This document shows, piece after piece, positions 1,490 through 3,577 of a stretch of 64,000 bases of DNA. Made by a program: the position numbers and the translations under genes. The notes below the pieces were generated by a model. It searched no databases and had not been told where the DNA came from. It worked only from the letters and a program-made list of their open reading frames with translations. This DNA is from an uncultured Gammaproteobacteria bacterium (GTDB lineage Bacteria; Patescibacteriota; Patescibacteriia; Magasanikbacterales; GWA2-37-8): assembly GCA_964641245.1 (NCBI GenBank), contig CAZXML010000001.1, positions 229,460-293,459 of the forward strand, given 5' to 3'. Position 1 is the stretch's first letter, and every line of letters starts with the position of its first letter.

Positions 1490-3577
1490 TCACACTTTTA
1501 TCATTTTGAGAAACTCGTCTTCTGTTAATATCTTTACCCCTAATTTTAGCGCTTTTTCCTTTTTACTGCCCGGATTTTCGCCGGCGATAACTGCGATAGT
1601 ATTTTTGCTGACGGATTCCCCTATCTCACCGCCCAGCTCTCTAATTTTATCTTTGGCTTCGTCGCGAGACATGGCGCTTAAAGTGCCGGTGAGGACAAAA
1701 CTCTGGCCGGATAATTTGCCTTTTTTCTTGGCTTCAACTTTTTGAATCTGGACTCCGTTTTTTAATAAATTTTGGATAAGTTTTTTGTTTTTTTCGTCTT
1801 TGAAATATTCTACGATGGATGCGGAGACCTGGGGGCCGATATCTCCGATGGCTTCTAAATCAGCCACGCTTGCTTTCATTACATTGTCTATGGTTCTAAA
1901 TTCCTCGGCCAATTTGATGGCGGTTTCTTCACCCACATGACTAATGCCCAGCGCGTTTATAAATCTGGGCAGGGTTACTTTTTTGGCGGACGCAATGGCG
2001 TCTACTAAATTTTCTGCGGATTTTTCGGCAAAACGTTCCAAAGGTTCCAAATCGCCTTTGGTTAGGCTAAAAATATCGGCGGCGTTTTCTATTAGGCCTT
2101 CTTTTACCAGATGTTCCACAATTTTTTTGCCCAGGCCTTTTATATCATAGCCTGATTTACCCGCAAAATGAATAATCCGGCGTAATTGCTGGGCGTAACA
2201 ATTTTTGTTGGTGCAGTAGAGAGCGACGGAACTTTCGGCCAACCCACCCCTACCCAGACGCCTCCCGACCGCGGTCGAGGATCCTCGATTCTTGAGAATC
2301 GGGACAAGCGGGGAATCGCGACGACTGACTTCGTTGCCGCAGATGGGACAATTTTTTGGTTCTCTTATATTTTTTTCCTCGCCGGTTCGCATTTTATCCA
2401 AAACACGGATAATTTTTGGGATAATATCTCCAGCTTTTTCTACCACAACGCTATCGCCTACCTTTACTCTCAAACGCTCTATTTCATCCCAATTATGCAA
2501 AGTAGCGTGCGTGACGGTGGTTCCAGCCAGTTTTACCGGATCCATAACAGCCACCGGAGTAATAGCGCCCGTGCGTCCTACTCCCCAAATCACCTCTTTA
2601 ACTTTGGTAATACCCTGTTCGGCCGGGAATTTATAAGCAATAGCCCAGCGCGGGGCTTTACCGGTAAAACCAAGCATGTTTTGGTATTTTTTTTGATTTA
2701 CTTTTATGACTACTCCGTCTATCCAAAACTCCTGGCCGGTTTTATTTTTTTGCCAATATTTATGAAAATCAAAAATTTCTTTCAGGTTTTTGCAAACCTT
2801 CCAATGCGTGTCGGTTTTAAATCCTAAATCTTTTAGAGTTTGTAATTCTTGTTCCTGAAGAGGCGGAGCGTTGTCGCTGGAGATGTCATAGGCGGTAAGA
2901 ACCAATTTTCTTTCGGCTACAATCTTGGAATCCAGCTGGCGGATAGTGCCGGCGGCGGCGTTACGCGGATTAGCAAAAAGCTCTTCGCCTTGCTTCGCCC
3001 TGCCAGCGTTAATCTTCTCCAGCATTTTTTTCTCTAGCCATACCTCGCCTTCGGCAACCAAACTAATCTCTTTTTTCAATTTTAGCGGCACTGACCAAAT
3101 AGTTTTGATGTTGGCGGTGACGTTTTCGCCCACCAAACCATCACCTCGGGTGGCCGCGGTCGTTAAATTGCCGTTTTCGTAGGTTAAAACCATGTGCAGG
3201 CCGTCTATTTTTAATTCGCAGACATAATCTAAGTCTTTTGGCCTGGAACCCAGTTCTTTTTCCAAAATTTTCATTATTCTTTCTTCCCAATCCAGCATAT
3301 CTTCCTCCGCAAAAGCATCATTAAAAGACCACTGCGTAACCGTGTGTTTTACTTTTTCAAATTTCTCCGATGGCTTACCGGCCACTCTTTGCGTTGGTGA
3401 ATCCGGCGTTACCAGTTCCGGATATTCTGTTTCTATTTTTCGGAGTTCATCCATTAGGCCTTCGTACATGGAATCGGTGACTTGGGGGTCGTTGAGGACG
3501 TGGTATCTGTACCGCAAATCATCCACTTGAGCGCGGAGTTTTTCTACATGTTCCGTTAAATTTTTTGATACAGACAT
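1490..3577 (-). CDS. ligA: NAD-dependent DNA ligase LigA.
   Basis: 695 aa with the KxDG adenylation motif (ELKIDGL), OB fold, CxxC...CxxxxC zinc finger, HhH region and a C-terminal BRCT domain. It carries a ~25 aa in-frame insertion in the zinc finger (see findings). Confidence 0.95.

Follow-up and report, generated by a model that had tools for sequence, protein, structure and literature searches.

The NAD-dependent DNA ligase gene (ligA) of a Patescibacteria genome carries an in-frame insert of 81 nucleotides (nt) within its zinc finger, and our comparisons support reading this insert as a copy of one arm of a small palindromic repeat, translated as judged by the open reading frame (ORF). 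The gene lies in a stretch of 64,000 nt of contig CAZXML010000001.1, from an uncultured bacterium placed by GTDB in the Magasanikbacterales; this whole stretch is referred to below as the window. We consider it likely, with a probability of roughly 0.85, that the segment is tolerated selfish DNA in a permissive loop of LigA, of the same kind as the Rickettsia palindromic elements (RPEs). The gene, its zinc ligands, and the insert are located as follows.

1490–3577, minus strand: ligA, NAD-dependent DNA ligase, 695 amino acids (aa), from the ORF list, Pfam, and the match to 2OWO
2339–2350, minus strand: first zinc-ligand pair, CPIC (C410, C413), invariant columns, codons checked
2198–2215, minus strand: second zinc-ligand pair, CTNKNC (C455, C460), invariant columns, codons checked
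2237–2317, minus strand: in-frame insert of 27 codons (D421–A447), a long-variant arm of a palindromic repeat family, from GC content, comparison, and the predicted local distance difference test (pLDDT)

The product has the KxDG lysine adenylation domain, OB fold, Cys4 zinc finger, HhH, and BRCT regions of a LigA protein, and Pfam recovers the adenylation, OB, HhH, and BRCT domains (PF01653, PF03120, PF12826, and PF00533) with E values from 1e-82 to 4e-16. In an alignment of 63 LigA sequences, K123 and the zinc ligands C410, C413, C455, and C460 form invariant columns. The C4 zinc-finger model PF03119 covers the second half of the finger only, residues 448 to 462. A HMMER comparison with E. 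coli LigA (2OWO; E = 5e-159) gives two aligned blocks, between which residues 423 to 452 of the window protein face just 3 E. coli residues, in the gap between the cysteine pairs. The C413-C455 spacing is 41 residues; it measures 21 among the nearest relatives that lack the insert and 14 in the relatives where it is shortest. An earlier reading of the window, made from its sequence alone (hereafter the original prediction), had noted the enlargement correctly, but its figures of 38 residues against a usual value of about 15 need to be replaced by these.

The insert lies between the second and third zinc-ligand cysteines and leaves the frame and all four cysteines intact. It had been placed at 2237 to 2318; the insert is real, and its end is one base nearer, at 2317. 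Its GC content is 0.642, compared with 0.435 in the remaining ligA, and just 0.43% of 81-nt windows across the 64 kb are equally GC-rich. Two words recur exactly in an intergenic element at 32250 to 32352: the 20-mer CGGCCAACCCACCCCTACCC, at 2236–2255 and 32318–32337, and the 12-mer CAAGCGGGGAAT, at 2305–2316 and 32342–32353. Both are co-linear, their order and orientation agreeing between ligA and the element, and the 19-mer core GGCCAACCCACCCCTACCC was matched in 0 of 100 dinucleotide-preserving shuffles. The insert also contains the palindromes TCGAGGATCCTCGA and CGACCGCGGTCG and the pair TCCCGA...TCGGGA. The original prediction had described a segment much GC-richer than its gene, with palindromes of its own and words in common with a hairpin element near 32251, and had read it as a partial copy of that element inside the LigA zinc finger. 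The descriptive points were borne out, and the last claim is supported by the exact words together with the family identity of the arms found at the same site in orthologues.

On the coding strand the insert consists, in order, of ATTCCCCGCTTG, TCCCGATTCTCAAGAATCGAGGATCCTCGACCGCGGTCGGGA, GGCGTCT, and GGGTAGGGGTGGGTTGGCC, and the right arm of the intergenic element, in reverse complement, is TTCCCCGCTTG-GGCG-GGGTAGGGGTGGGTTGGCC. Because its ends equal this right arm, the ligA copy can be described as an arm with 45 extra central bases. The parts of the insert, and the full element, are listed below.

2305–2316, minus strand: 5' segment of the arm (coding strand ATTCCCCGCTTG), with the same sequence as each terminus of the 32249–32353 element
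2263–2304, minus strand: nested double-hairpin module TCCCGATTCTCAAGAATCGAGGA / TCCTCGACCGCGGTCGGGA, 42 nt, with copies at loci L152 and L117
2256–2262, minus strand: GGCGTCT on the coding strand, a remnant of the hairpin 3' stem (GGCG) plus 3 extra bases, by comparison with the short arm at L084 and L086
2237–2255, minus strand: G-rich 3' tail of the arm (coding strand GGGTAGGGGTGGGTTGGCC), copied exactly at 32319–32337; the invariant tail of the family in metagenomes
32250–32352, no strand assigned: full 103-nt palindromic element of the same family, from its DNA fold, the family alignment, and its genomic context

The full element is located in the metK leader, between the terminator of an S-adenosylmethionine (SAM) riboswitch and the metK start codon. 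As single-stranded DNA it folds with −47.7 kcal/mol (z = −10.6). A perfect 100-nt hairpin had been proposed at 32251 to 32351; the strong hairpin is there, but it is not perfect, since the element is an imperfect palindrome with a small extra hairpin in one arm. A hairpin of this stability could influence read-through transcripts. The riboswitch is a SAM-I type (RF00162, 55.8 bits) at 32389–32523 on the minus strand, upstream of metK (31233–32198, minus strand), and its terminator hairpin is CTTTCCTGCCAAGGAAAG followed by a T-run.

The ligA copy folds no better than shuffled sequence (z = +0.4), which rules out a DNA or mRNA hairpin formed by that copy itself. By sequence pattern alone, its tail GGGCGGGGTAGGGGTGGG fits a canonical four-run G-quadruplex on the ligA sense strand. 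Sites with patterns of this type occur at 2237–2262 and 32319–32340 of the window and at 6944–6962 of L084, which is unusual for a genome of 43% GC. Ribosomal RNA genes of the Candidate Phyla Radiation (CPR) are known to hold intervening sequences, and the ligA segment might likewise be removed after transcription or translation in an intron-like or intein-like manner. Yet the insert is in frame, with no stop codon and no stable fold, no Rfam intron family matches the window, and 27 residues bounded by D...A are far below intein size and lack intein-like residues; we regard removal as highly improbable. An intein or self-splicing intervening sequence as such was rejected on the same length and boundaries, together with the lack of any Rfam match in ligA.

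Alignment with LigA orthologues, a check that the original prediction had proposed, shows the arm in some orthologues and its absence from others at the same site. Three LigA proteins that are 76 to 83% identical to that of the window (P0002, P0003, and P0020) carry a short arm there. The arm DNA of L084, L086, and L082 reads GAT/AAT TCC CCG CTT GGG CGG GGT AGG GGT GGG TTG GCC, and it agrees with the reverse complement of window positions 32319–32352 at 34/34 positions in L084 and L086 and at 33/34 in L082. These short-arm alleles are 12 codons longer than the minimal 24-residue zinc fingers of distant relatives, which is the length of one 36-nt arm. The most similar LigAs, P0005 and P0007 (84%), have no insert and read ...VERKKVIDAKQESSVALFC; the insert-free relatives are P0005/L088, P0007, L002, L003, L006, and L009. 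Other alleles include P0054/L209, a LigA of 69% identity whose zinc-finger loop contains a diverged arm; P0006/L210, with an arm in which a different 16-nt perfect palindrome is nested; and P0021/L211, whose arm at this site is paralogous and has a compensated stem. A scan of genome contigs with LigA returned only insert-free close relatives and distant phyla. As evidence against itself, the original prediction had named close relatives with the same insert and no similarity to any repeat family. That is not the situation found here, since the family has at least 111 distinct copies in metagenomes.

The same alleles bear on the idea of an assembly artefact, in which a repeat-induced chimera would have put repeat sequence into ligA. 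Short GC-rich repeats can mislead assemblers, but in independent assemblies of other samples the codon boundaries of the short arm are exactly identical, the frame is preserved, and the identical 695-aa protein is recorded from NCBI and from JGI on differently sized contigs. We give such an artefact hardly any credence.

The surroundings of ligA in these relatives have features of their own. Small ORFs of 91 to 101 aa with a GIY-YIG domain (L084 5335–5610, L085 1489–1764, L210 419–724) are present in two insert-bearing relatives, immediately upstream of ligA, and the window has none there; possibly they bear on the mosaic history of ligA, or they are ordinary YhbQ-type genes. In L088, the closest insert-free relative, two inverted family arms, at 1–26 (cut by the contig end) and 395–428, surround a stretch of about 370 nt immediately upstream of ligA. 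The called start of the P0002 LigA (from 5628 of L084) runs into an upstream repeat, MGLLRFARNDNLKKF..., and repeat-derived peptides probably inflate N termini in automatic gene calls of these genomes.

Compared with these short arms, the window ligA copy is a long-variant arm with a nested double-hairpin module, seated at the position expected for the loop of the small hairpin of the arm itself (CCCCGC-TTGG-GCGGGG). The middle 49 nt of the insert have no further copy in the 64-kb window, even at 3 mismatches. Elsewhere, the module is found at L152 (41/42 identity) and L117 (33/34), in both cases within arms of the same family, at the same position, and followed by GGCGTCT-GGGTAGGGG as in ligA. 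The L152 copy and the ligA copy share their reading frame, and the flanking translation of the L152 host resembles the C-terminal part of the radical-SAM (RlmN-like) protein at L173. More diverged two-hairpin versions lie within arms at L113, L100/L115, and L161/L190, and a related double-hairpin module (TCCCGA...TCGAGGATCCTCGA...TCGGGAG) without arm tails is present at 1230–1300 of L171. The long variant came about through nested insertion into the hairpin loop or, alternatively, through conversion by another long copy. The L171 module apparently lies within an ORF whose continuation contains a YRNKMEYNF motif, putatively of the TrmA/RlmD type.

We searched metagenomes for further copies of the element at 32251, as the original prediction had also proposed, using the exact tail GGGTAGGGGTGGGTTGGYY as the query. 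At least 120 contigs matched, and once overlapping contigs were removed, at least 111 distinct arm contexts were counted. The contigs with an arm come mostly from Hainich groundwater assemblies, and the family populates Magasanikbacteria-like Patescibacteria genomes. Among the matches listed, solo arms number 75, and a partner arm accompanies the other 36. The full elements listed number 35 and measure 85 to 125 nt, with TTCCCCGCTTGGGCGGGG and CCCCGCCCAAGCGGGGAA as terminal inverted repeats; 19 of the 35 have the 87-nt form TTCCCCGCTTGGGCGGGGTAGGGGTGGGTTGGTCAACGTTGTCGAACCCACCCCCGGCCTTGAGGCCGACCCCGCCCAAGCGGGGAA. Many are nested in the loop of a larger hairpin, TTGTCATYCC...GGAATGACAA, whose terminus is of the same type as that of the abundant D1, D3, and D5 repeats of the window. 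Across subfamilies, a compensatory G-C to T-A change preserves the small hairpin, and the G-rich tail is constant. The covariation concerns one pair, for which 98.6% of cells are paired; 10 of 500 shuffles did equally well, and the compensatory change may be taken as a modest sign that the hairpin is kept. Viral contigs in IMG/VR contained no arm copy, hence no hint of a phage vector, and Rfam returned no family for the element, just sub-threshold microRNA-hairpin noise. Identity as an attC site or a CRISPR repeat was set aside, since the full-element sequences lack the core motifs and regular spacing, as was a role as a DNA uptake sequence, for which the density in the window (3 arms per 64 kb) is too low.

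Arms of this family also occur inside other genes. We considered an arm ORF-embedded when the ORF was open for at least 85 codons on both sides of it, and 26 arms among the at least 111 contexts listed are of this type. They use 4 of the 5 stop-free frames, which read SPLGRGRGGLA, PRLGGVGVGW, QPTPTPPKRG, and NPPLPRPSGE. Ten hosts were identified with Pfam: GyrB, transketolase, an RsmI-type methyltransferase, tRNA-guanine transglycosylase (TGT), a UvrD-type helicase, a Mur ligase, an ELP3-like radical-SAM enzyme, leucyl-tRNA synthetase (LeuRS), a radical-SAM (RlmN-like) enzyme, and TatD. Several of the ten hold additional repeat-like inserts. In another LigA, that of L163, the arm occupies a different loop, following residue ~168, and across 120 LigA homologues this loop and the zinc-finger loop are the two sites that collect inserts. 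The zinc-finger loop reaches at least 36 residues in 23 of these 120, and many of the inserts that enlarge it resemble translated repeats (PVILSEPKDP...RDSSATPQND; RPHPNLLLKGEG...PVRRGKGEVS). The PVILSEPKDP type matches the D1 family of the window as translated in its ELP3-like gene (PVILSKAKDLSLSNKRDSSVTSLPQND). Several repeat families fill the zinc-finger loop, and the second LigA loop, in other lineages. In the window itself, three further genes, with hosts confirmed by Pfam, have in-frame copies of three other families.

46252–46295, plus strand: D1 repeat (TGTCATCCTGA...) in an ELP3-like radical-SAM gene, ORF 44862–46625
36273–36360, minus strand: D3 repeat (TGTCATTGCGAGG...) in a Mur ligase gene, ORF 35562–36896
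6624–6666, minus strand: D11 repeat (CTCCCC...GGGGAG) in a PilM gene, ORF 5719–6867

On this sequence evidence, the ligA case is not isolated and forms part of a general in-frame colonization of housekeeping genes. The window also has two inverted pairs. One (17211–17284 and 27328–27401) corresponds to two opposite copies of a tRNA gene (Rfam 17213–17283, plus strand, and 27329–27399, minus strand); the other (23512–23634 and 36952–37074) spans 123 nt and is 91% complementary.

Structure prediction had been suggested as a test of zinc-finger integrity. The AlphaFold model of the window LigA, built on the 63-sequence alignment, has a mean pLDDT of 82.7 and falls below 50 only at residues 65 to 70 and 423 to 447. 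The short strands beside the insert, 416 to 419 and 453 to 455, are retained and confidently predicted, the insert itself is of low confidence, and the rest has the LigA fold, matching DNA-bound E. coli LigA 2OWO with a Foldseek E value of 5e-63. The model thus predicts an intact ligase with a disordered loop of 25 to 27 residues projecting from the zinc finger, and it places the insert in a surface loop, where the fold is predicted to tolerate it.

A loop at this position might be an adaptive feature of the protein. In the E. coli LigA structure, the domain bearing the zinc finger reportedly contacts DNA, and a flexible loop rich in Arg and Gly (RR...GRRLGRGG), kept with an open frame in several lineages, could improve or otherwise change how LigA handles DNA. 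However, the insert is absent from the nearest relatives and is predicted to be disordered. Its conservation is at synonymous sites, with no protein-level pattern, other host genes read the same DNA in four different frames, and unrelated repeat families place quite different peptides in the same loop of other lineages. An adaptive loop is, in our judgment, improbable.

Several observations weigh against the interpretation of the segment as tolerated selfish DNA. First, there is no clean insertion: relative to the nearest insert-free relatives, the arm occupies the place of 7 codons (KVIDAKQ). Second, no target-site duplication is apparent, as no recurrent direct repeat flanks the 35 full copies and the palindrome extends by one A/T pair only. 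Third, neither a transposase nor an autonomous partner was found in the window or the sampled loci with an IS200-type probe, the only one used; this approximate TnpA query, a weak test, gave no significant tblastn match in the window plus 2.0 Mb of loci. Fourth, neutral decay is at odds with the third-codon positions of the arm, which are identical at 12/12 sites in every pair of four ligA orthologues, against a gene-wide third-position identity of 0.45 to 0.58 (P = 7e-5 to 1.4e-3 per pair). Such invariant synonymous sites need to be explained by conversion, a recent exchange, or nucleotide-level selection.

The distribution of the arm among LigA lineages points in the same direction. In a neighbor-joining tree with 200 bootstraps and the zinc-finger region masked, the insert-bearing LigAs are monophyletic in 0/200 replicates, which rules out a single ancestral insertion with vertical descent alone, and the window LigA groups with the insert-free P0005/P0007 in 145/200. 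The third-position identity and this scattered distribution therefore argue against one old, neutrally drifting insertion. The window and L082 are about 95% identical over roughly 100 nt around the insert, compared with 78% gene-wide, and in L084 and L086 the immediate flanks of the arm have diverged normally. This pattern fits exchange of the zinc-finger segment by recombination, homogenization of the arm by other copies, or selection at the DNA or RNA level.

Under the last of these, the arm would be kept in ligA for a role at the nucleic-acid level: as a protein-binding site, as an RNA or DNA structure such as the G-quadruplex-type GGGCGGGGTAGGGGTGGG, or as a recognition site of a mobilizing enzyme. 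Such a role would be compatible with a selfish origin. It would account for the identity of all 12 synonymous positions in four orthologues whose flanks have diverged normally, for a G-rich tail that is uniform over many contexts and accompanied by a stem varying with one compensatory G-C to T-A pair, and for a family consensus common to organisms whose LigAs are just 76 to 83% identical. Nevertheless, the uniformity of the tail in metagenomes is partly built in, since the scan demanded an exact tail, and gene conversion or recent recombination accounts for the same data, the insert-bearing alleles being phylogenetically scattered. In addition, the solo arm has no better fold than its shuffled counterparts, and copies are sparse, with 3 arms in 64 kb. 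We consider a nucleic-acid role unlikely.

The scenario that we favor remains tolerated selfish DNA. Transposition would have brought the element in, or else recombination or template switching involving another copy, and the element would have persisted because the solvent-exposed loop between the cysteine pairs tolerates a disordered peptide rich in Gly, Arg, Pro, and Ser. The change from the short to the long arm and the uniformity of arms among orthologues may result from gene conversion by other genomic copies; alternatively or additionally, the zinc-finger segment may have been exchanged between lineages by homologous recombination. A benefit to LigA need not be assumed. More speculatively, and with considerable doubt on our part, the family might be an actively maintained, structure-directed mobile element of the CPR, one that prefers hairpin loops and a few permissive loops of essential enzymes and whose copies are kept near-identical by an enzyme or by conversion from a master copy. 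If this were the case, proteins such as LigA, GyrB, and LeuRS would show presence/absence and short/long polymorphism, which recombination would carry from one lineage to another.

Selfish repeats that lie in frame within essential genes have so far counted as a curiosity of Rickettsia, familiar from textbooks. The present case extends the phenomenon to Patescibacteria, free-living and ultra-small inhabitants of groundwater, with several families and with recurrent sites in individual proteins, and the enzymes affected include core ones of replication (LigA and GyrB), translation (LeuRS), and tRNA modification (TGT). It explains many odd low-complexity inserts and broken domain matches in CPR proteins, as with the zinc-finger Pfam model that fails on LigA, and annotators and phylogeneticists are well advised to mask such segments. 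The inserts are also natural experiments on protein loops that tolerate about 12 to 30 extra residues. The nesting of elements in elements, the recurrent insertion sites in single proteins, and the uniform copies across species are all noteworthy, and the combination of uniform copies with a tree-discordant distribution makes the mode of spread tractable for population metagenomics.

In-frame palindromic repeats are thus a known kind of element, apparently undescribed in Patescibacteria. We found no description of such elements for the CPR, Patescibacteria, or Parcubacteria in the literature, of which coverage was incomplete, so that an earlier description is possible. Among known systems, repetitive extragenic palindromes (REPs) and their hairpin-forming doublets (REPINs), mobilized by REP-associated tyrosine transposases (RAYTs), resemble our family in having a short hairpin with a conserved flanking motif in each arm, inverted doublets beside many singlets, and high uniformity. 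In contrast, REPs are extragenic by definition, whereas the arms described here are often intragenic and in an open frame, and the GTAG motif lies 3' of the stem on the G-rich strand rather than 5' as in REPs. The sampled DNA also yielded no RAYT or IS200-type gene, by the weak test of an IS200-type probe. We rejected membership in the REP/REPIN class on location and on the position of GTAG.

Transposable elements of the miniature inverted-repeat type (MITEs) offer a second comparison. Bacterial MITEs forming in-frame fusions include intragenic ERIC, BOX, and cyanobacterial elements (PMC10969869). The family shares with MITEs a small size (less than about 300 bp), terminal inverted repeats, no coding capacity, and occasional in-frame insertion. 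It differs in that the flanks of the 35 full copies show no target-site duplication, and on this ground an assignment to the MITEs fails. A matching autonomous insertion sequence is not known, and none was seen in the window or the 2.0 Mb of loci with the approximate IS200-type probe. The frequency of insertion in essential genes also looks much higher here than in those MITE families.

The closest likeness is to RPEs, which are in-frame repeats in genes (Ogata et al. 2000, as summarised in PMC10969869). In both cases, small palindromic repeats are dispersed in unrelated housekeeping genes, in frame and without breaking them, and are also found between genes. RPEs are translated as an extra peptide at positions compatible with the fold, as the LigA insert appears to be from its ORF and predicted structure. 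The family occupies many unrelated loci, leaves the frame open in genes, and in LigA lies, by prediction, in a surface loop; its full element forms a hairpin, and the ligA copy, being one arm, does not fold. The likeness is one of kind, and we do not claim homology: the phylum (Patescibacteria/CPR) is unrelated, and there is no evident sequence relationship. Moreover, the unit is shorter here, about 87 nt when full, and its commonest genic form is a single 36-nt arm. In a further departure from RPEs, the elements described here nest in each other's hairpin loops, and their copies are near-identical across species whose host genes have diverged by about 22 to 27% at the nucleotide level.

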